A DNA stretch of 64,000 bases from Candidatus Magasanikbacteria bacterium GW2011_GWC2_37_14 (GTDB taxonomy: Bacteria; Patescibacteriota; Patescibacteriia; Magasanikbacterales; UBA922): NCBI GenBank assembly GCA_000990355.1, contig LBSX01000002.1:6000-69999 (forward strand). Direction: 5' to 3'. The stretch's first letter is position 1; every line of letters begins with the position of its first letter. Shown one piece after another: positions 1,444-62,888 of the stretch. The notes under the pieces were generated by a model that was not told where the DNA came from, ran no database searches, and saw only the letters and a program-made list of their open reading frames with translations. The position numbers and the translations under genes are program-made.

Positions 1444-1497
1444 CCTCCCCTATGAGGGGAGGGGTAGCCTGCCTGCCGGTAGGCAGGGGTGGGGTTT
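1444..1497. repeat. two GC-rich palindromic hairpin modules (family B)
   Basis: ccctcccctatgaggggaggg and gcctgcctgccggtaggcagg. Near-identical modules recur at 37929-37947, 38421-38450 and 47248-47274. Confidence 0.6.
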
Positions 1498-3991: not shown

Positions 3992-6583
3992 TTATATAGC
4001 AAATAAAAACCCATAACTCAAAGAAGTATAGGCCATATCTTGCCAAACAGTAAATTCATTCATATCCGGCATGCGGGCCCAAGGAGCATATTGTCGAAGG
4101 GCAGGAATATTTTTTGGGGTGGGATAAAAATTATTATACACCAAACAACCCCAAGCATCGGTAGGTTCACAATCGCCGTCATAATCTCGTGCATGGGGAC
4201 CATAAATAGGTAATCCAGGGACTGGTTTTTCTTGTTGGTCATACATAGAATTCAAATGTAGTGGAAATTCGGGATTTCTAATTCCTAATCCAGTTATCCA
4301 AGAAAGACCCAAAGGATTTTCTCCTAATTGATAATCAGCATTTAAAGAAATTGCGTCGATATATTTTTGATCTTTGGTAAAATAATATGCCATTGCAGTG
4401 CCAACAATACTTCTCATAGAGTTTGATCCCGAGCCCCAAGCAATTGCGTAATTAAAATTAGTAGAATTTTTATATTTATTTTCCATAATTTGTTCTACTT
4501 CGTCATTGCCAATTTCAATAATTCTATTTTTTACTTGTTCTTGAAAATCTCTGTCAACGTTGGTGCCATTGGCATTGCTATAACCCCAAAAAGAATAAAT
4601 ATTTGCAAACCAAGTAGGACCACGATAGGTTGGGTACAATTGTTTAAATACATTTTGATATTTTGTTTCATTGGTTAAAGCAAATAATTCTCCGGCGGCG
4701 TACATTTTTTCTCTTTCTAGTTCATTCAGTTTGTCTTCGTTACTTCTTTCTACAGGCGCTGTCGTGCCAAGGCTAGTTTGTTTTTCTGCCCAATCCCAAG
4801 CTTTCAAGGCTTTATTTTTTAAATCAGTGGCTTTGTTTTTTCCGGCGGGATAATTTTCCAAAATTCTCGCTAAATGTGCAGCTGCTCCGGCAAATTTATA
4901 AGAAGTCCATCTGTTTGGAGCATATGTCCAGTAGGGAAGTGTGTCACCCTCACATGTAGAAGAACCTGGGTGAGCATAACTCTCAACGCCAGCTCTTACT
5001 CCGCCGTCTGATTCTTGTAAAGTTTCCCATAATTTTATTCCCCATAAAGCTTCATCCAAAACATCTGGAATTTGGTTTCCACTTTCCGGAATATTTAATT
5101 GATTGTCTGTAAATTTATTAGGAAACATTTCTTGTAAGGTTGTTAAATCTTCGACAATTAGTAAATGCATTGGTCTTAAATCAAAATCACCAGCATCAAA
5201 CCAACCACCACTAATATTTATCGGGTTATTTTTGGAAGTATTTTTAGAAAATTTTTCACCAAAATCTTCCAATATATTTGTTTCAAATACTTGGTTCAGG
5301 CACATTTTATGAATCCAGTTGGTATATTTTGATTCTAGGGCTGTGCCAGCCCGTTGGTGGTACAAACCGCGAATTGCTGTATAAAAGGCTGTAAAAGCAG
5401 AATCTAGCCCTACGCTAAAGACAAGAGATCGACCAATTCCTTCTACCTCAAGATAATAATTACCTTCGTTTAAATCACTTAAATCTAATTCATATAAAAT
5501 TTCTCCACTTAGATTGTCCGATCCTAAGTTTGTTGATTTTCCCGAACTGACCAATTGTTTGGAACTGGCATTATACACTTGATAATTTAATTGTGTCGGC
5601 AATATTAAAGCACCGCCAGAACCTAACCAATAACCAACATAAGCATAGCGTTCTTTTGCTTTTAAAGAAAAACCATGTTGATTAATTTTAATAGCTTTGG
5701 CAATTTGCAAATCTTTGCCAGGCATTAAATTCCAAGAAGAAAATTGTTCATTGGAAAAATAACCAATTGTTCCGTTATAAACATATTTTTTACCTGTTGG
5801 GTTAATAAGTTCTACTGTATAATTTTGATCATTTTTTAATTCTTTAGGTAAAGTTAAATACAAAGTATGTCTTAAAACAACGTCGGCTTGGTTTTGGCCG
5901 TTATAATCTCTGTCTTCAGCATCTAATACTGCCGAAAATCGATCAATTTTTGTAGGATGAACAATATTTTTGTAATTTATATCACTAGTAGAAATAATAT
6001 TCCAATTGTTTGCATTCATTATAAAATTTAAATCAATTTCACCATCAAAAATTACTTCCGCTATTTTATTAGTAATTAGTCCAATTGAATTATTTTTTAT
6101 TACGACTTCAGAAGTAGTAAATTCACTGTCTGGATATATTTCCGAGTTGTTTATGGTTAATATTCTGTCCCAGCGATAGCCCAAATTATTAAAAGCAGTT
6201 TCATTAGCAATGTGTTTTTTTAATAAAATTCCTTTTTCACTGTATTCTAAGCGATAAACTTTATTACTATTAGCATATTTTATAATTGTAAATTCTGGGT
6301 GATGGTCAGTGTAATTTATTTCACCGGCAGTTTCGTATTTATTTAATAATTCGACATCAATATTTTCAATCCAATTCCAAGGGTATTTTAAAGAGTTAAA
6401 AATATTTTCAGATTTTATCCAATATTTTTTATTGTTCAATAATATATACACCTTTGGGTCGTTGGGAATTTTTACCAAAGCGCCATGCAGGGTGTTATTA
6501 ATAGAAAATGCTTTTGGCACAAACAATACAAAGGCAAAAACTAAGTTTAAAACAATTAAACTAAATATTTTTCTTTTATTCAT
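3992..6583 (-). CDS. large secreted glycoside hydrolase, GH9-like
   Basis: N-terminal signal peptide. GGWFDAGDFDLRPMH resembles the GH9 GGWYDAGDH motif, and C-terminal LGENPLGLSWITGLG.RNPEFP resembles the GH9 NP...SYVVGYG...PHHR region. Confidence 0.5.
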   Translation of the reverse strand: MNKRKIFSLIVLNLVFAFVLFVPKAFSINNTLHGALVKIPNDPKVYILLNNKKYWIKSENIFNSLKYPWNWIENIDVELLNKYETAGEINYTDHHPEFTIIKYANSNKVYRLEYSEKGILLKKHIANETAFNNLGYRWDRILTINNSEIYPDSEFTTSEVVIKNNSIGLITNKIAEVIFDGEIDLNFIMNANNWNIISTSDINYKNIVHPTKIDRFSAVLDAEDRDYNGQNQADVVLRHTLYLTLPKELKNDQNYTVELINPTGKKYVYNGTIGYFSNEQFSSWNLMPGKDLQIAKAIKINQHGFSLKAKERYAYVGYWLGSGGALILPTQLNYQVYNASSKQLVSSGKSTNLGSDNLSGEILYELDLSDLNEGNYYLEVEGIGRSLVFSVGLDSAFTAFYTAIRGLYHQRAGTALESKYTNWIHKMCLNQVFETNILEDFGEKFSKNTSKNNPINISGGWFDAGDFDLRPMHLLIVEDLTTLQEMFPNKFTDNQLNIPESGNQIPDVLDEALWGIKLWETLQESDGGVRAGVESYAHPGSSTCEGDTLPYWTYAPNRWTSYKFAGAAAHLARILENYPAGKNKATDLKNKALKAWDWAEKQTSLGTTAPVERSNEDKLNELEREKMYAAGELFALTNETKYQNVFKQLYPTYRGPTWFANIYSFWGYSNANGTNVDRDFQEQVKNRIIEIGNDEVEQIMENKYKNSTNFNYAIAWGSGSNSMRSIVGTAMAYYFTKDQKYIDAISLNADYQLGENPLGLSWITGLGIRNPEFPLHLNSMYDQQEKPVPGLPIYGPHARDYDGDCEPTDAWGCLVYNNFYPTPKNIPALRQYAPWARMPDMNEFTVWQDMAYTSLSYGFLFAI

Positions 6584-9859: not shown

Positions 9860-9865
9860 TATAAG

Positions 9866-9937
9866 CTCGGGAGGTGGGGATCGAACCCACGACCATCACG
9901 TTAACAGCGTGCCGCTCTACCGCTGAGCTACTCCCGA
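9866..9937 (-). tRNA. tRNA-Asn (anticodon GTT)
   Basis: Manual cloverleaf: acceptor TCGGGAG/CTCCCGA, D-arm GCTC/GAGC, anticodon loop CTGTTAA, T-arm GTGGG-TTCGATC-CCCAC, discriminator G. CCA is not encoded. Confidence 0.85.
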
Positions 9938-9944
9938 ATATAAA

Positions 9945-10097
9945 ATGTCTGTGTATTCACAGAAACTATGAACACATTAAATACCTTATACTTAAAGTGC
10001 GAAGCGGTACCACTGCCTGCCCGCCAAGCTTGCTGGTGATTGCGCCGGATGGTTGTGGTGTGAACCGAGAGGCGGGGGCTACTCCCGAATATAAATT
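9945..10097. repeat. GC-rich structured island bounded by an 18-19 bp direct repeat that duplicates the tRNA-Asn 5' end
   Basis: gctactcccgaatataaa occurs at 9927-9944 and again at 10078-10095. The roughly 130 bp between them is GC-rich with internal inverted repeats (gcccgcc / ggcgggggc). Confidence 0.4.
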
Positions 10098-37399: not shown

Positions 37400-40384
37400 A
37401 TGAAAGATCTGAATTTAGAACAAAAACAAGCAGTAGAATACACCTCTGGTCCGCTTTTGATTGTCGCCGGAGCTGGTACTGGTAAAACTACAGTAATCAC
37501 CCAAAAGATTACTTTTTTGGTTAAGCAAAATTTGGCCAAACCCGAAGAAATTTTGGCTTTAACTTTTACAGAAAAGGCAGCCGGGGAGATGCAGGAGCGC
37601 GTGGATCAACTATTGGATTTGGGTTATTCAGACATGCAGATTTCAACTTTTCATGCTTTTTGTCAAAAACTTTTAGAATTTCATGGGCTAGACATTGGCT
37701 TGTCAAATCAATTTAAATTATTAACTCCCACTGATGCTTGGCTCTTGGTACGTAAAAATTTAGATAAATTTAATTTGGATTATTATCGACCCCTGGGTAA
37801 TCCTACGCGCCATATCCATGAATTAATTAAACATTTTTCTAAGTGTAAGGATGAATTAATTACGCCAGCAGAATATTTAAAATATGCGGAAGAAGTGAGT
37901 TTGGATGATGATGCCGACCCCACCCCATCCTCCCCTACAAGGGGAGGGGAACGTAAGCGTCTCACTGAAATAGCTAATGCTTATCATACTTATAATCAAC
38001 TTTTGCTGGATAATAATTGTCTGGACTTTGGTGATCTAATTTTTTATGGCCTTAAATTGTTAAAAGAACGGCCAAATATTTTAAAATTATTGCAAAATAA
38101 ATATAAATATATTTTGGTTGACGAGTTTCAAGATGTTAATTATGCACAGTATGAATTGGTAAAATTGTTTACGACTAATGGAAATCAGTTAACAGTTGTG
38201 GGAGACGATGACCAGTCAATTTACGCCTTCCGCGGAGCATCGGTTTCCAATATCTTACGTTTTAAAGATGATTTTCCTAATGCCAAAGAAATTGTTTTAA
38301 CAGAAAATTATCGTTCAGGCCAAGAAATATTAGATTTAGCCTATAAATCAATACAAAATAATAATCCCGATCGTCTAGAGATTAAATTAAATATCAATAA
38401 ACAATTAAAGTCAGTAGTTAGTAGCCTGCCTGCCGGCGAGGCAGGTCTAAAGTCTGAAGTCGAATACAAGCATTTTAATACTTCAACTGAAGAAATTAAT
38501 TTTGTAATTAATAAAATTTGTGAGATTTGTAAAGATGAATCTGTAGTTTTGTCAGATTTTGCAATTTTAATTCGCGCCAATAGTCAGGCCGAACCGTTTA
38601 TTAATGCTTTTGAAAAAGTTGGTCTGCCTTATGAGTATCTGGCTTCGTCTGGATTATATCGCCAGCCATTAATTTTAGATTGTATTAACTTTTTAAAAGT
38701 ATTGGACAACTATCACGAATCCAGTGCTATTTTTCGTTTATTACATTTACCTTTTTTAAAATTTAATCCAGATGATTTACAAAAAATAACCTATTTTTCT
38801 AAGAAAAAAAGCATTTCTTATTATGAAACTCTAAAACGTGGATTGGAAATTAATTTATCAAAAACAGGTATTGAAATAGTCAATAAATTGTTAAATATAA
38901 TAAACAGTGGCACACAAATGGCCAAGGAAAAAAAACCTATAATAATTTTATTAGATTTTTTAGAACAAAGTGGTTATTTTAAATATCTTGCCTTGGAAGA
39001 TGAACAAGGTAATAGAGAAATAATTAAACAAATTAAAGAGCTACGAAGTTTTTTTGAAGAAGTTAAACACTACGAAGAATCAGTGCCTCAAGCACGCGTG
39101 TCAGATTTTTTGGAACATTATAATTATATTTTAGAGTCTGGTGATGAAGGGCAAATGTTTAAAAATCTAGAAGAAACAGAAGCGATAAAAATTTTAACGA
39201 TTCATTCTGCCAAGGGCTTAGAATTTAAATATGTTTTTGTTGTTAACTTGGTGGAAGAACGTTTTCCTAGTCGTAAACGTGGAGAAGCTATTGAATTGCC
39301 TGTATCATTAATTAAAGAAAATCTATCAGAAGTGGATTACCATGTTAATGAAGAAAGACGTTTATTTTATGTGGCCTGTACCAGAGCCAAAGAAAAATTA
39401 TTTTTAACTAGCGCGGATGATTATGGTGGGGTGAGAAAGAAGAAAGTTAGTAGGTTTATTGATGAATTAAATTTAAGTATGGAAGCAAGGCAACAATATA
39501 ACAATGTAACTATTGACACATTGCCACATTGTCACACTGTTGACAAAAAAGATATTAATCAGTCTAAAAGTACTACAATTTTATCTGACACCTTTTCCTA
39601 CTCCCAAATCAATTCATATCTTCGCTGTCCTTATCAGTATAAATTAGCCCATGTATTAAAAATTCCTACCACAGGCAATGCTAGTTTTAGTTTTGGTTCA
39701 ACTATACATAATACTTTACAAAAATTTTATAACCAGGTTATTGAATTAAATAGTATTAAACAAGATTCGTTGTTTGTTCAACATACTACAACTAAACAAG
39801 TTGGAGAAATAAAAGTTCCAACATTGGATAATTTACTAAAATTTTATAAAGATTCTTGGCAAGATGACTGGTATCAAAATAAACAACAACGAGAGGAATT
39901 TTACAAAAAAGGACATAAAATATTGGAAATATTTTATTCTTCAGAGCAAAAAAATGGCTGGACTGTGCCAGTTTTTCTAGAGAGCGGTTTTAAAATTAAA
40001 ATAGGAGATTATTTTATAAATGGACGCATAGATCATATTGATAAATTATCGGCTGGTGCTTTAAAGATTATTGATTATAAAACCGGTAAAGCTAAAGAAA
40101 AAGTAGTTGGCGATGATAAAAATCAACTGCTAATTTATCAAATTGCCGCGGAAATTTTACCTGAATACAAAAATATTGGCCCAGTTAGTGAATTAACTTT
40201 TTATTATTTAGAAGAAAATCTTACAACGTCTTTTGTTGGCGACGATAAAGACAAAACAAAACTACAAGAAAAAATTATCAAAACAATTGGGGAAATAAAC
40301 GATTCTAATTTTGTTGCCACACCCAGTGAACACATTTGTCAGCATTGTGATTTTAGAGACATTTGTCAGTTTAGACAATTATAA
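37400..40384 (+). CDS. UvrD/PcrA-like SF1 helicase fused to a C-terminal PD-(D/E)XK (RecB/Cas4-like) nuclease
   Basis: Motif I AGAGTGKT and motif II DEFQD. C-terminal region with IDYKTGK and a Cys cluster CQHCDF..C. Contains two short GC-palindrome inserts. Confidence 0.85.
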   Translation: MKDLNLEQKQAVEYTSGPLLIVAGAGTGKTTVITQKITFLVKQNLAKPEEILALTFTEKAAGEMQERVDQLLDLGYSDMQISTFHAFCQKLLEFHGLDIGLSNQFKLLTPTDAWLLVRKNLDKFNLDYYRPLGNPTRHIHELIKHFSKCKDELITPAEYLKYAEEVSLDDDADPTPSSPTRGGERKRLTEIANAYHTYNQLLLDNNCLDFGDLIFYGLKLLKERPNILKLLQNKYKYILVDEFQDVNYAQYELVKLFTTNGNQLTVVGDDDQSIYAFRGASVSNILRFKDDFPNAKEIVLTENYRSGQEILDLAYKSIQNNNPDRLEIKLNINKQLKSVVSSLPAGEAGLKSEVEYKHFNTSTEEINFVINKICEICKDESVVLSDFAILIRANSQAEPFINAFEKVGLPYEYLASSGLYRQPLILDCINFLKVLDNYHESSAIFRLLHLPFLKFNPDDLQKITYFSKKKSISYYETLKRGLEINLSKTGIEIVNKLLNIINSGTQMAKEKKPIIILLDFLEQSGYFKYLALEDEQGNREIIKQIKELRSFFEEVKHYEESVPQARVSDFLEHYNYILESGDEGQMFKNLEETEAIKILTIHSAKGLEFKYVFVVNLVEERFPSRKRGEAIELPVSLIKENLSEVDYHVNEERRLFYVACTRAKEKLFLTSADDYGGVRKKKVSRFIDELNLSMEARQQYNNVTIDTLPHCHTVDKKDINQSKSTTILSDTFSYSQINSYLRCPYQYKLAHVLKIPTTGNASFSFGSTIHNTLQKFYNQVIELNSIKQDSLFVQHTTTKQVGEIKVPTLDNLLKFYKDSWQDDWYQNKQQREEFYKKGHKILEIFYSSEQKNGWTVPVFLESGFKIKIGDYFINGRIDHIDKLSAGALKIIDYKTGKAKEKVVGDDKNQLLIYQIAAEILPEYKNIGPVSELTFYYLEENLTTSFVGDDKDKTKLQEKIIKTIGEINDSNFVATPSEHICQHCDFRDICQFRQL
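37913..37950 (+). repeat. GC-rich palindrome (family B), in-frame in the helicase gene
   Basis: gaccccacccc...cctcccctacaaggggagg is near-identical to the module at 1444-1464. Encodes PTPSSPTRGGE. Confidence 0.6.
38421..38450 (+). repeat. GC-rich palindrome (family B), in-frame in the helicase gene
   Basis: gtagcctgcctgccggcgaggcagg is near-identical to 1466-1487. Encodes SLPAGEAGL. Confidence 0.6.
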
Positions 40385-47247: not shown

Positions 47248-47274
47248 TAGTCTACCTACTGGCAGGCAGGCTAA
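47248..47274. repeat. GC-rich palindrome (family B, inverted orientation)
   Basis: tagtctacctactggcaggcaggcta is the reverse complement of the tagcctgcctgcc(g/a)gtagg module. Confidence 0.5.
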
Positions 47275-47396
47275 ATATTCTACAAATACCTCAAAAAAAT
47301 GGGGTATTTGTGTTTTTTGTGGTTTTTTGCTAAAATAAAAGATAATAAATCCCTGTAAAAAGGATCTTTTTTCACTACAAATAACTAGCTAATTTT

Positions 47397-52184: not shown

Positions 52185-52955
52185 ATGACTAAAAAAACTT
52201 TGATAATTCTACCTGGATGGGGTGGAAACAAAGAAACGTGGAAAAATTTTGCAGAACTTGCGAGCAAAGATTTTGACGTACATATTATTGAATTGCCGTG
52301 TTTTGGCGATGAACCCTGCCCAAAAACAGTTTGGGATATTGAAGATTATGTTGAGTTTGTTAAAAATAAACTTCTTGAGCGTCATTCCCGCGAAGGCGGG
52401 AATCTTAAATTGGTGAAAGATCCCCGTTTTCACGGGGATGACGCAGTGCTATTAGGTCACTCATTTGGTGGACAAGTAGCCACGGTCTTTGCTTCCAAAT
52501 ACCCAGAGATGATTGAAAAACTTATTTTAACAGCACCGGCTGTTTTCCGCCCTAAAAAAACTTTTCGACGAGTAGTTTTCAATATTGGAGCAAAATTTGG
52601 TAAATTAATTTTTAAAATTCCTTGGATAGAAAATGGTTCCCTCTGGGCCGAAAAAATTTATCACCAAGCAATTGGTGCCAAAGATTATCATGATAGTTCG
52701 GGCATTAAACGAGAAATTTTTAAAAATATTATTCGTCAAGACAGGGGAGTGGAAGCTAGTAAAATTACTATACCAACTCTAATTGTTTGGGGTACAATGG
52801 ATGGTTATCTACCAGTTGCTGATGCTAATCAATTGAATAAATTAATAAAAAACTCTAAACTTGAAATAGTTAATGGTGGAAGACATGGATTACACCTACA
52901 AATACCAGAAAAACTTTTATATTTAATAAAATCTTTTCTTGAAAAAAATATATGA
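52185..52955 (+). CDS. alpha/beta hydrolase
   Basis: GHSFGG nucleophile elbow. Contains an in-frame palindromic insert just upstream of it. Confidence 0.7.
   Translation: MTKKTLIILPGWGGNKETWKNFAELASKDFDVHIIELPCFGDEPCPKTVWDIEDYVEFVKNKLLERHSREGGNLKLVKDPRFHGDDAVLLGHSFGGQVATVFASKYPEMIEKLILTAPAVFRPKKTFRRVVFNIGAKFGKLIFKIPWIENGSLWAEKIYHQAIGAKDYHDSSGIKREIFKNIIRQDRGVEASKITIPTLIVWGTMDGYLPVADANQLNKLIKNSKLEIVNGGRHGLHLQIPEKLLYLIKSFLEKNI
52380..52443 (+). mobile_element. MITE-like element (family A-like, GTCAT...ATGAC termini), in-frame in the hydrolase gene
   Basis: cGTCATtcccgc-gaag-gcgggaatc...gatccccg-ttttca-cggggATGACg: two subterminal hairpins. Encodes RHSREGGNLKLVKDPRFHGDD. Confidence 0.55.
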
Positions 52956-61242: not shown

Positions 61243-62070
61243 TTAAATCTTACTTAATAAAATTCCACAAGCTACAGCCACATTAAGTGATTCGGCTTGC
61301 CCTGCCTTCGACCCGAGCTCAGGCCGAGGGTAGCCTGCCGAAGGGCAACCTAGAATAGTATACTTATTATCTAGCATTTTTTCAACTTCTGGTCGTATTC
61401 CGTGCGATTCACTACCAAAAACATAAATATTCATATTTTTCTTATTAACTTTGTCCAACTTATCACCATTCATTACCATGCCATTAAGCACATAACCATT
61501 TTTTTGAAGCTTTGTAAGGTCTTGAACAACATTAGTACTCTCTAAAATATTTAGATGAAAAATAGAACCCATAGTACTCCGCACAGCTTTAGGATTGTAT
61601 AAATCCACGCAATCTTCGGATAATAATATGCTTTTAACACCAAACCAATCTGCAGTGCGAATAATTGTTCCCAAATTTCCTGGGTCTTTAACCCCGTCTA
61701 AACAAATAATTGTCCCGTCAAAATCATTTAAAATTACTTTTGGTTGTTTTATAACAGCCAAAATCCCAGGAAAAGTCTCAGTGGTTTTAAGTTTCTTGGC
61801 TTCTTTTTCGTTACAATATTCAATCAAAATATCATTTTTGGTAGCCAGGTTAATTAAATCTAAAAAATCTGGCTCACTATCCTTTGTTTTTTCAATTACT
61901 AACAAAACAACATTCGCTTGAGCAAGCATTGCTTCTTTTACACCTTTAACACCTTCAACAATAAATTCACCCTGTGCTTGGCGAAATTTCTTTTGCTCTA
62001 TCTTATTTAAATGTTTTAGACTTTTTTGTGAAAGCATAAATAATAAATAAAAACTACTGTCGCCTTCCAA
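61243..62070 (-). CDS. SpoU/TrmH-family RNA 2'-O-methyltransferase (RlmB-like)
   Basis: Motifs ICLDGVKDPGNLGTIIRTA and ESLNVAVACGILL. Has a C-terminal in-frame GC-rich insert. Confidence 0.8.
   Translation of the reverse strand: MEGDSSFYLLFMLSQKSLKHLNKIEQKKFRQAQGEFIVEGVKGVKEAMLAQANVVLLVIEKTKDSEPDFLDLINLATKNDILIEYCNEKEAKKLKTTETFPGILAVIKQPKVILNDFDGTIICLDGVKDPGNLGTIIRTADWFGVKSILLSEDCVDLYNPKAVRSTMGSIFHLNILESTNVVQDLTKLQKNGYVLNGMVMNGDKLDKVNKKNMNIYVFGSESHGIRPEVEKMLDNKYTILGCPSAGYPRPELGSKAGQAESLNVAVACGILLSKI
61293..61350. repeat. GC-rich palindromic insert inside the spoU-like gene (related to families B and C)
   Basis: ttgccctgccttcg...gagctcaggccgagggtagcctgccgaagggcaa. Shares gtagcctgcc with family B and ccttcg...gctcagg with family C. 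Encodes about 12 extra aa (GYPRPELGSKAGQA) before the ESLNV motif. Confidence 0.55.
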
Positions 62071-62888
62071 ATCCTTTTAATTCTTTGTGGTTGTTTGATT
62101 AAGCGATACAACCATTCTAACCCAATTTGACGTAAAAATAAAGGGGCGCGTTTAACAGTTCCGGATATATAATCAAAAGCTCCACCCACACCCATGGCAA
62201 TTCTGACACTTGGTAAGTCTTTTAAATTTTCATTAATCCACTTTTCTTGTTTACCATGACCAAAGGCGACAAAAAGGATGTCTGGGGCCGACATAATAAT
62301 CTGTTGAACAATTTCGTCATTTTCTTCTTTATCATAACTAATCTTGTAATCTTTTAATCTTTTAATCTTCATCCCCTTGTTTAACCCAACGATCTGTAAA
62401 TTTTTAAATTTTTTTCTTAATTCGTCACCTGTCTTTCTTATTACCTCTTCGCTTCCCGACCCTAATAAATATACACTTTTATTCGTTTTCTCTGCGAAAG
62501 CACAAATATCATGCATTAAGTCTATACCAGGGTAACGCGTTATCCTCCTCTTTCTAAGAGGAGGTGGCCGAAGGCCGGTAGAGTTTGCCGGAGTTTCATC
62601 AGCTTCGGCAACTCCCCCCGCCTGCCTTGACGGCATGTCGGGCAGGCCTACCCCCTCTTGGAAAGAGTGGGGCAACCACATTGCTAGCTTTAAACCCGTT
62701 CCATCACAAACATTCAAATCTCCACTATTTAAAACAGTTTTAAAATAGTTGTCTTTTTGCGCGTCAACCAGTATTTCTGGATTAGGGGTAAAAATTTTAT
62801 GCGATTTGTTTGAATTCAAAAATTCAGTAACTTTTTCAAGTACTTCTGTTATTGATAAATTGTCTATTCTTACATTAAGAACGTTCAC
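62016..62888 (-). CDS. WecB/TagA/CpsF-family glycosyltransferase (GT26)
   Basis: N-terminal pattern including DG.G. Carries an insert of about 40 aa in the middle. Confidence 0.65.
   Translation of the reverse strand: MNVLNVRIDNLSITEVLEKVTEFLNSNKSHKIFTPNPEILVDAQKDNYFKTVLNSGDLNVCDGTGLKLAMWLPHSFQEGVGLPDMPSRQAGGVAEADETPANSTGLRPPPLRKRRITRYPGIDLMHDICAFAEKTNKSVYLLGSGSEEVIRKTGDELRKKFKNLQIVGLNKGMKIKRLKDYKISYDKEENDEIVQQIIMSAPDILFVAFGHGKQEKWINENLKDLPSVRIAMGVGGAFDYISGTVKRAPLFLRQIGLEWLYRLIKQPQRIKRIWKATVVFIYYLCFHKKV
62543..62690. repeat. cluster of four GC-rich hairpin modules, in-frame inside the tagA-like gene
   Basis: cctcctc-tttctaa-gaggagg; ggccgaaggcc; gcctgcc-ttgacggcatgtcg-ggcaggc; cccctctt-ggaa-agagtgggg. 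Encodes GVGLPDMPSRQAGGVAEADETPANSTGLRPPPLRKRRI. Confidence 0.55.

Follow-up and report, generated by a model that had tools for sequence, protein, structure and literature searches.

Probable ultra-small selfish palindromes in intergenic and coding DNA of a Candidatus Magasanikbacteria genome

Introduction

Short GC-rich palindromes have been described in bacteria and in organelles, and these systems are the natural comparison for two palindromic modules, here called A and B, that recur in a 64,000 nt stretch of DNA (the window) from Candidatus Magasanikbacteria, an uncultivated groundwater member of the Candidate Phyla Radiation (CPR; Patescibacteria). Like the modules, the repetitive extragenic palindromic (REP), BIME and REPIN elements are GC-rich palindromes of about 20–40 nt that lie mostly outside genes, often past terminators between convergent genes, and lack long target duplications. 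REP sequences have a conserved 5′ head of four nucleotides, GTAG or GGAG, and are mobilised by RAYT transposases, which are enzymes of the Y1 HUH type. The SDR4–6 repeats of Nostoc are reportedly 21–27 nt, hairpin-forming and mobile, near-identical between genomes, and typically nested in other repeats and in tandem heptamer arrays. Background on REPIN sequences and RAYT is available (PMC3116915). The Rickettsia palindromic elements (RPEs) are about 150 bp long and have an open reading frame (ORF) encoding a conserved peptide; as appears to hold for the modules, they are selfish palindromes that have entered a variety of housekeeping genes in frame, in a genome that is small and AT-rich, where the protein fold allows it (PMC10969869). 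The GC clusters of yeast mitochondrial DNA have terminal TAG/AG repeats, form composites by merging and shuffling, vary fastest in their loops, and include in-frame insertions in var1 (PMC8811140).

No known family fits the modules fully. Their units are 20–36 nt long, encoding 7–12 residues each, and their closer parallels are REP, SDR and GC-cluster elements rather than RPEs. The evidence presented below makes it likely that both modules belong to an ultra-small, non-autonomous kind of selfish DNA, palindromic and rich in GC, that is filtered by selection and translated where a protein loop tolerates it.

Results

Modules A and B in the window

The host genome is AT-rich (~32% GC) and the window varies between 27 and 37% GC in 2 kb bins, while the islands holding the modules have 65–71% GC, in agreement with the original prediction. 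Islands of at least 70% GC in 24 nt were found at 38 start positions, compared with 0–8 in shuffled sequence. Module A has the form CCTCCCCT-loop-AGGGGAGG, with a stem of 8–9 bp. Pattern matching over the whole window gave two exact copies only of the sequence CCTCCCCTAYRAGGGGAGG, at 1444–1462 and 37929–37947, and no match was seen across 100 dinucleotide shuffles of the window. Module B (CCTGCCTGCCGG..AGGCAGG, stem 7–10 bp) has two window copies and one degenerate copy, and none in shuffled sequence. Its core is a perfect 20 nt palindrome, CCTGCCTGCCGGCAGGCAGG. The 20 nt form at 1468–1487, CCTGCCTGCCGGTAGGCAGG, has a loop one base shorter than the 21 nt form, CCTGCCTGCCGGCGAGGCAGG, which was located by pattern match at 38425–38445. 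All five B-type copies in the window are preceded by TAG, and four of them by GTAG. A census of ~81 kb of this genome gave two copies of A, three of B and two B-like stems, with no inverted doublets of modules. Of the insertion sites in the window, over half fall in coding sequence.

The two modules meet in a composite on the plus strand at 1443–1497, between convergent genes and 12 nt past the intrinsic terminator (1401–1431) of a csp-like (cold-shock-like) gene. It starts with the module A hairpin CCCTCCCCT-ATG-AGGGGAGGG (1443–1463), an exact match with a perfect 9 bp stem. GTAG followed by the 20 nt module B (1464–1487) is nested between this hairpin and a G-run tail of the A-type element, GGGTGGGGTT, at 1488–1497. 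As single-stranded DNA, the composite is predicted to fold into two hairpins (fold z = -4.2 for 1440–1500). A-type elements without B are found elsewhere, with the form ...AGGGGAGGGG-(N)-GGGGTGGGG, in Bacteroidetes loci L019, L049 and L108.

The inverted copy predicted near 47248–47274 is real. It is a degenerate module B that follows TTAG on the minus strand at 47252–47273 (TAG-CCTGCCTGCCAGTAGGTAG; on the plus strand CTACCTACTGGCAGGCAGG then CTA), and it is intergenic, 8 nt past the greA stop and directly before a terminator-like hairpin at 47281–47312. A search of the window against Rfam 15 matched only a tRNA-Asn, and gave only sub-threshold, terminator-like hits for 1350–1550.

In-frame inserts in a UvrD-like gene

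Copies of both modules had been predicted within a UvrD-like ORF, and both were confirmed there. The encoded protein has UvrD and PD-(D/E)XK nuclease domains. The A-type element GACCCCACCCCATCCTCCCCTACAAGGGGAGGGGAA, which contains the second exact copy of module A, lies in frame at 37916–37951 on the plus strand and encodes DPTPSSPTRGGE; GTAG and the 21 nt module B follow at 38421–38445 on the same strand and encode SLPAGEAG. The reading frame stays open across both modules, giving ...DPTPSSPTRGGE... and ...SSLPAGEAGL.... In a DNA comparison with the closest orthologue (70% identical, on contig L293), each of the two sites is longer by 21 nt, and at site 2 the additional 21 nt equal exactly the 21 nt module. 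Neither PTPSSPTRGG nor SLPAGEAGL occurs in any of 21 UvrD-like orthologues. In this closest orthologue a frameshift in a run of Ts (L293 1640–1780) leaves two ORFs, of 455 aa and 501 aa; the break may reflect a mistake in assembly or genuine pseudogenisation.

Two distant CPR helicases, P0148 and P0157, show related hairpins encoding LPAEAG and LPAQAG in the SLPAGEAGL loop, and P0123 has a two-hairpin insert in the same loop. The B-like hairpins of the distant helicases imply that insertion has recurred at a common hotspot, or else that an early insert was lost many times. A diverged B-like hairpin, GGACTGCCCGCAGAGGCAGGG, encoding GLPAEAG, is present in a UvrD-like helicase gene of Candidatus Staskawiczbacteria (L003, ~6690), and the corresponding residues of P0157 are LPAQAGEG.

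In-frame inserts in SpoU-like and TagA-like genes

The gene for a SpoU/TrmH-type methyltransferase has an insert of 42 nt (14 codons) on the minus strand at about 61307–61348, with boundaries uncertain by a few bases. It separates the TIPG strand from the (N)GQAESLNV helix, at a point where the closest relatives read ...YTIPG/NGQAESLNV, and the empty sites in relatives L004 and L005 read ACTATACCAGG/AAATGG. A third relative, L001, has a version of 15 nt, which matches the window insert once the inner 27 nt are taken out, a relationship that points to nested growth or to internal deletion. The plus strand of the insert includes GTAG-CCTGCC. A protein alignment shows that this loop is variable across the family, and it is longer also in PDB 2i6d.

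A larger insert, of ~120 nt (40 codons), is found on the minus strand at about 62550–62669 in a WecG/TagA-type glycosyltransferase gene. On the coding strand it forms five consecutive GC-rich hairpins (fold z = -5.5), one more than the four that had been predicted. Hairpin 1 has a pyrimidine arm and a purine arm in the style of module A, hairpin 2 is B-like (GTAG-GCCTGCC...GGCAGGC, with a nested hairpin), and the first part of the insert repeats the A-GTAG-B architecture of 1443–1497. The window protein, 100% identical to one from Candidatus Magasanikbacteria bacterium GW2011_GWC2, is 290 aa long, versus ~242–255 aa in most of its best 120 homologues, and the predicted surplus of about 40 residues was confirmed as 40 codons relative to orthologues. 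These residues come after the motif CDGxGLxLA and are absent from the closest relatives, P0002 (76% identical) and P0003 (71%). Other Magasanikbacteria have unrelated inserts in the same TagA loop.

L001 carries a TagA composite that is homologous to that of the window, with the same hairpins in the same order. The two inserts share 80.7% nucleotide identity, whereas the remainder of the gene shares 68.6% (Fisher p = 0.008), and by inspection their differences appear to fall mainly in the loops. L004, a closer relative (77% identical), is without the insert. An identity above that of the host gene, together with absence from the closer relative, argues for constraint at the nucleic acid level, or for mobility, and not for a drifting protein loop.

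The SpoU and TagA inserts had been described as degenerate or composite forms of the modules. They are indeed composite, GC-rich and of the same style, but they are not copies of A or B: by sequence comparison they belong to the same element style and not to the same sequence family. All that they share with module B is GTAG followed by a CCTGCC/GGCAGG stem, and they are otherwise composites of other hairpins.

AlphaFold2 models built on the SpoU and TagA orthologue alignments had mean predicted local distance difference test (pLDDT) scores of 89 and 81, respectively. Values below 50 fall exactly over the inserts (SpoU residues 234–243, TagA residues 74–113) while the remainder is confidently folded, so that both inserts lie in loops predicted to be disordered. 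Relative to orthologues, the inserts of the UvrD-like, SpoU and TagA genes add 21, 21, 42 and 120 nt, preserving the host reading frame as predicted. Alignments of orthologues showed all of them to be lineage-specific and missing from the closest orthologues, rather than conserved at the protein level in unrelated lineages. The coding inserts would yield PTPSSPTRGGE, SLPAGEAGL, GCPSAGYPRPELGSKAG and the residues of the TagA insert.

Other in-frame hairpins and antisense ORFs

An alpha/beta-hydrolase gene holds two in-frame hairpins of another sequence family, GTCATTCCCGCGAAGGCGGGAAT and GATCCCCGTTTTCACGGGGATGAC, at 52377–52443 (plus strand). As read from the window sequence only, they encode RHSREGGN...DPRFHGDD, just ahead of the GHSFGG nucleophile elbow. 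The widely familiar palindrome family to which they belong (GTCATTCCCGCGAAGGCGGGAAT, GATCCCCGTTTTCACGGGGATGAC, TCGCGAGCGACGACAGGAGCGTGGCGATCCCC) is also present in intergenic spacers of the same contig (L295 891–965 and 2104–2138), and is probably what the original prediction had treated as a first family. The same contig has a small gene for a DUF559 protein (a Vsr-like PD-(D/E)XK endonuclease) adjoining clpB (L295 6378–6740), an arrangement also seen in the relative L004 (102–488). The L295 gene adjoins a G-rich island, AGGGGGGCTGGGGGGGG.

Four small ORFs had been put down to side-effects of the GC islands. Three of them (37783–37965, 38341–38580 and 52209–52433) overlap modules in antisense. 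The fourth (61595–61921, plus strand, 108 aa) is antisense within the spoU-like gene and outside its GC island; it overlaps no GC island at all, and the palindromic inserts therefore do not explain it.

Distribution beyond the window

Neither module is unique to the window. When genomes were scanned for module A (CCTCCCCTNNNAGGGGAGGGG with any loop), at least 120 matches from many phyla were listed, which include Sphingomonads, Clostridia, Selenomonadaceae, Geobacter, Betaproteobacteria, Chloroflexi, Nostoc and Bacteroidetes, with several recurring composite contexts; no CPR genome was among the matches listed. The Bacteroidetes loci have the architecture A-(optional hairpin)-GGGGTGGGGTC, as at 1443–1497, and in Nostoc (L102, L112) an A-type hairpin has the same TATGA loop. 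Ten A-bearing loci gave no match in Rfam 15.

A metagenome scan for module B, in which a preceding TAG was imposed, found at least 120 contigs, and a scan of viral contigs without TAG gave 47 stretches with 53 copies in the sample, some viral contigs holding three to six. By a rough estimate based on ~20 specified bases, chance would account for fewer than ~10 in the metagenomes and fewer than one in the viral contigs. The host contigs span 30% to 70% GC and include one, L199, that is annotated as a Patescibacteria group bacterium. TAG stands ahead of B in only two of the 53 viral copies, and the view of TAG as the site into which B inserts, modelled on IS200/IS605, was dropped as a general rule. 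Among plasmids (PLSDB) there were only partial matches, in GC-rich plasmids; the best, from Sphingomonas, was an uninformative 17 nt fragment, and no cyanobacterial plasmid was matched.

Module B is not enriched in ORFs but depleted there: in the TAG-imposed metagenomic sample, ~13% of B copies are inside long ORFs and ~87% outside. The 21 nt variants are weakly enriched in long ORFs across the sample (p = 0.046). One independent coding copy from a metagenome is in frame in a TypA/BipA GTPase gene (L231, ~4473), as ...NENSLPAGRQVSLEF..., and lengthens a loop by SLPAGRQ in comparison with BipA in the PDB. The nested arrangement of pyrimidine/purine hairpin, B and G tail was seen in 10 of 162 copies versus 2 of 1200 control positions, and the A-B-GGGGTGGGG composite recurs in metagenome loci L137 and L155. 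Other copies are found in arrays of short tandem repeats or next to terminators. Insertion of B at the apex of pre-existing hairpins was considered and rejected: flanking stems of at least 5 bp were present in 8% of cases versus 3% of controls, and the overall distributions were alike (Mann–Whitney p = 0.92).

A conserved two-hairpin composite, CCTCCCCTG(A/C)AAGGGGAGGGGGACC-(variable hairpin)-GGTGGAGGGGT, is present four times in 2.7 kb of Ruminococcus callidus ATCC 27760 (L084 3998–6666). Similar sequences are found in loci of Sphingomonads, Selenomonadaceae and Oscillospiraceae, which belong to distant phyla. It has no match among Rfam families and could be an undescribed structured RNA or repeat.

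Module B in tRNA sequences

A filled and an empty site stand close together in L199. The 5′ fragment of a tRNA-Lys has the sequence GGGGCGTTAG-(20 nt B)-CTCAG, compared with GGGGCGTTAGCTCAG in the intact tRNA, which lies 37 nt downstream. The insertion is exactly 20 nt, with no target duplication longer than 1 nt (an ambiguous single G), and the filled site has TAG on its 5′ side only.

Module B lies inside truncated tRNA duplicates beside intact tRNA genes in five loci: L199 (~4535–4700), L141 (6956–7937), L193 (1021–1223), L228 and L184. The partial duplicates are 5′ or 3′ halves and lie ~40–300 nt from the intact tRNA gene of the same type. The possibility that B interrupts functional tRNAs was discarded, as excising it gave no tRNAs detectable by ARAGORN and most of the sequences are truncated duplicates. 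The exception is a 92 nt tRNA-Met predicted by ARAGORN on an IMG/VR contig (L276 2239–2330), in which B forms the long variable arm. In L287, B is within the D-loop sequence of a tRNA-like stretch.

Within the window, a GC-rich segment of ~90 nt lies upstream of the tRNA-Asn gene (9865–9937), in the region 9990–10095 on the minus strand. It is preceded by a duplicate of the tRNA-Asn 5′ end and its upstream sequence (TTTATATTCGGGAGTAG versus TTTTATATTCGGGAGTGCTCAGC), begins directly after GTAG, and includes a B-like sequence, GGCGGGCAGGCAGTGG. Neither Rfam nor ARAGORN gave a match for 9990–10095, which resembles the pattern of a truncated tRNA duplicate with a palindrome seen in the metagenome loci.

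Discussion

If the modules are selfish DNA of the kind proposed, units of ~20–36 nt would insert at the DNA level into the AT-rich CPR genome, often beside or inside one another, and so build up composite arrays. Selection would then filter the insertions. Most surviving copies would be intergenic, typically just past terminators, while those surviving within genes would have a length that is a multiple of three, no stop codon, and a position in a surface loop. Once translated, such coding copies would form short stretches of disordered chain with many Pro, Gly, Ser, Ala and Arg residues. We infer that the elements are mobile rather than inherited.

Several observations weigh against this proposal. 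Copy number in this genome is known for ~81 kb only. At the module A, SpoU and TagA sites the insertion boundaries are fuzzy, host bases having been replaced as well, so a clean transposition signature is lacking there, and translation of the coding inserts is deduced rather than observed. The presence of the same 20-mer in hosts of 30% to 70% GC is hard to explain by any single known transposase. The scarcity of TAG before the viral copies means that this feature is not general and makes a REP-like GTAG head uncertain; the metagenome contexts of B are, moreover, biased, because that scan imposed TAG. When the ORFs lying up to 2.5 kb from B were compared all against all by BLAST, no family was shared by more than 6 of the 167 loci, and no Pfam transposase was found in ~17 kb of extra flanking contig or among the six window ORFs that were screened.

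How the modules might move can be stated only tentatively. Mobilisation as a single-stranded DNA hairpin by a trans-acting HUH/Y1 enzyme, of the RAYT or IS200/IS605 type, is possible, although we think it somewhat unlikely. The likeness to single-strand transposition in REP/RAYT and IS200/IS605 systems comes from the hairpin form, the lack of target duplication and the (G/T)TAG before the B copies of the window; the analogy is weakened by the rarity of TAG in the viral sample, by the failure to find a linked enzyme, and by the identity of the 20-mer across very different hosts. A more doubtful proposal is that module B is a mobile palindrome of a kind not described before, ultra-small, pan-bacterial and carried by phages, which may spread without a dedicated linked transposase. 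It may then use conserved host machinery for hairpin processing, replication or repair, or else phages, and hosts would tolerate it where it adds an arm to a tRNA or a loop to an essential protein.

Other origins for the inserts were weighed against the selfish-element reading. A perfect palindrome that recurs over many projects is what adaptors or chimeras can give, but that the modules are assembly or sequencing artefacts is extremely unlikely. The contig was assembled independently from several samples; the composite at 1444–1497 and the SpoU and TagA inserts are represented by identical copies between three of these assemblies, and these features are for that reason not assembly artefacts. 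Copies are also in frame and diverged (as loop variants, and in the diverged homologous composite of L001), and matches to B come from JGI, ENA, NCBI and Logan assemblies. Neither the 20-mer nor palindromic insertions in CPR genomes were found in a full-text literature search, which would include published adaptor and primer sequences. It is conceivable, but improbable, that the inserts were made locally, with template switching or hairpin-primed repair building palindromes in place and GC-biased repair enriching them. Such an origin would suit the nested appearance of the SpoU insert (the L001 version plus an inner 27 nt), the TagA hairpins, which are not repeated elsewhere in the window, and the replacement of host bases at the TagA and UvrD-like boundaries instead of clean addition. 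The unrelated inserts in the same TagA and SpoU loops of other Magasanikbacteria likewise suggest indel-prone hotspots. It does not suit the identical 20–21 nt sequence in more than 160 unrelated contexts and hosts, nor the identity of module A at two unrelated window sites, and the exact addition of 20 nt in the L199 tRNA fragment cannot arise independently by local processes.

There is also little likelihood that the palindromes are selected functional structures and not selfish, whether as stabilisers of mRNA 3′ ends, adjuncts to terminators, G-quadruplex or hairpin switches, or adaptive protein loops. Coding copies occur in unrelated genes, in loops that are entirely missing from the closest relatives, and the inserts are predicted to be disordered; no Rfam family matches were found, and the contexts are heterogeneous (tandem repeats, tRNA fragments, phage contigs). 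These features outweigh the position of intergenic copies directly beside terminators, the four G-runs of A-type elements (GGGGAGGGG...GGGGTGGGG), and the stems of the TagA insert, which are more conserved than the host gene, all of which a functional role would account for. Excision of the coding copies from RNA, or their bypass in translation, would leave the proteins unaltered and has a precedent in the 'byp' GC clusters of Magnusiomyces mitochondria, which are bypassed during translation (PMC8811140); removal would also be convenient where B lies inside tRNA sequences. For the window this is very unlikely. All five of its coding inserts (21, 21, 42 and 120 nt, and that of the hydrolase) are multiples of three with no stop codon, which is the signature of selection on translated sequence and speaks against splicing or bypass. 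In addition, the UvrD-like gene has the 21 nt variant, the one weakly enriched in long ORFs, while the intergenic copy has 20 nt, and most tRNA pieces carrying B are truncated duplicates beside intact genes.

The selfish-element reading can be set beside the known systems at several points. The RPE-type interpretation given in the original prediction holds insofar as the modules appear to be in-frame selfish palindromes in permissive loops; it fails on size (20–36 nt against ~150 bp) and on the family peptide. The RPEs are, furthermore, confined to Rickettsia, whereas the modules, with their 7–12 residues, occur in many lineages. The (G/T)TAG before the B-type copies of the window resembles the REP head, but TAG is missing from most copies elsewhere. 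REP and REPIN sequences have a high copy number and are extragenic and arranged as inverted doublets; here there are about five copies in ~81 kb, none of them doubled. In the known system a RAYT gene lies beside the REPs, but none was found near any copy here (167 B loci; ~17 kb of flanks). REP families are usually species-specific, while B is identical across very different hosts and in frame in genes. Miniature inverted-repeat transposable elements have terminal inverted repeats matching an insertion sequence, and a target-site duplication, in contrast to module B, for which L199 shows no duplication above 1 nt and no related insertion sequence was found (167 loci).

Yeast mitochondrial GC clusters resemble the modules in their AT-rich host, mostly intergenic position, composites, loop variation and in-frame insertion, a likeness of behaviour only that implies no homology. 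They differ in being organellar and in having no sequence similarity; their TAG/AG target duplication was not seen here (L199), and bypass is not indicated. The cyanobacterial SDRs appear closest in size and nesting, and B is likewise found nested in other hairpins and in arrays of short tandem repeats. They differ from the modules in host, being cyanobacterial where the present elements are in a CPR bacterium, and in the prominence here of in-frame coding copies.

The genomes of CPR bacteria are tiny and streamlined, so that selfish DNA tolerated in a DNA-repair helicase, an RNA methyltransferase and a cell-wall glycosyltransferase is unexpected. The elements create lineage-specific disordered loops and mark spots prone to recombination or indels; they also give rise to antisense ORFs that are spurious, and can lead gene callers and alignments astray. 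That one perfect 20 nt palindrome is common to well over a hundred unrelated environmental and viral contigs raises the question of what carries it from one phylum to another. These elements could also help to show how selfish DNA gives rise to protein loops and to extra arms in RNAs, and if module B does spread without a dedicated transposase, it would represent a class of mobile DNA that is new, and would be a source of innovation in the protein loops and RNA arms of reduced genomes.

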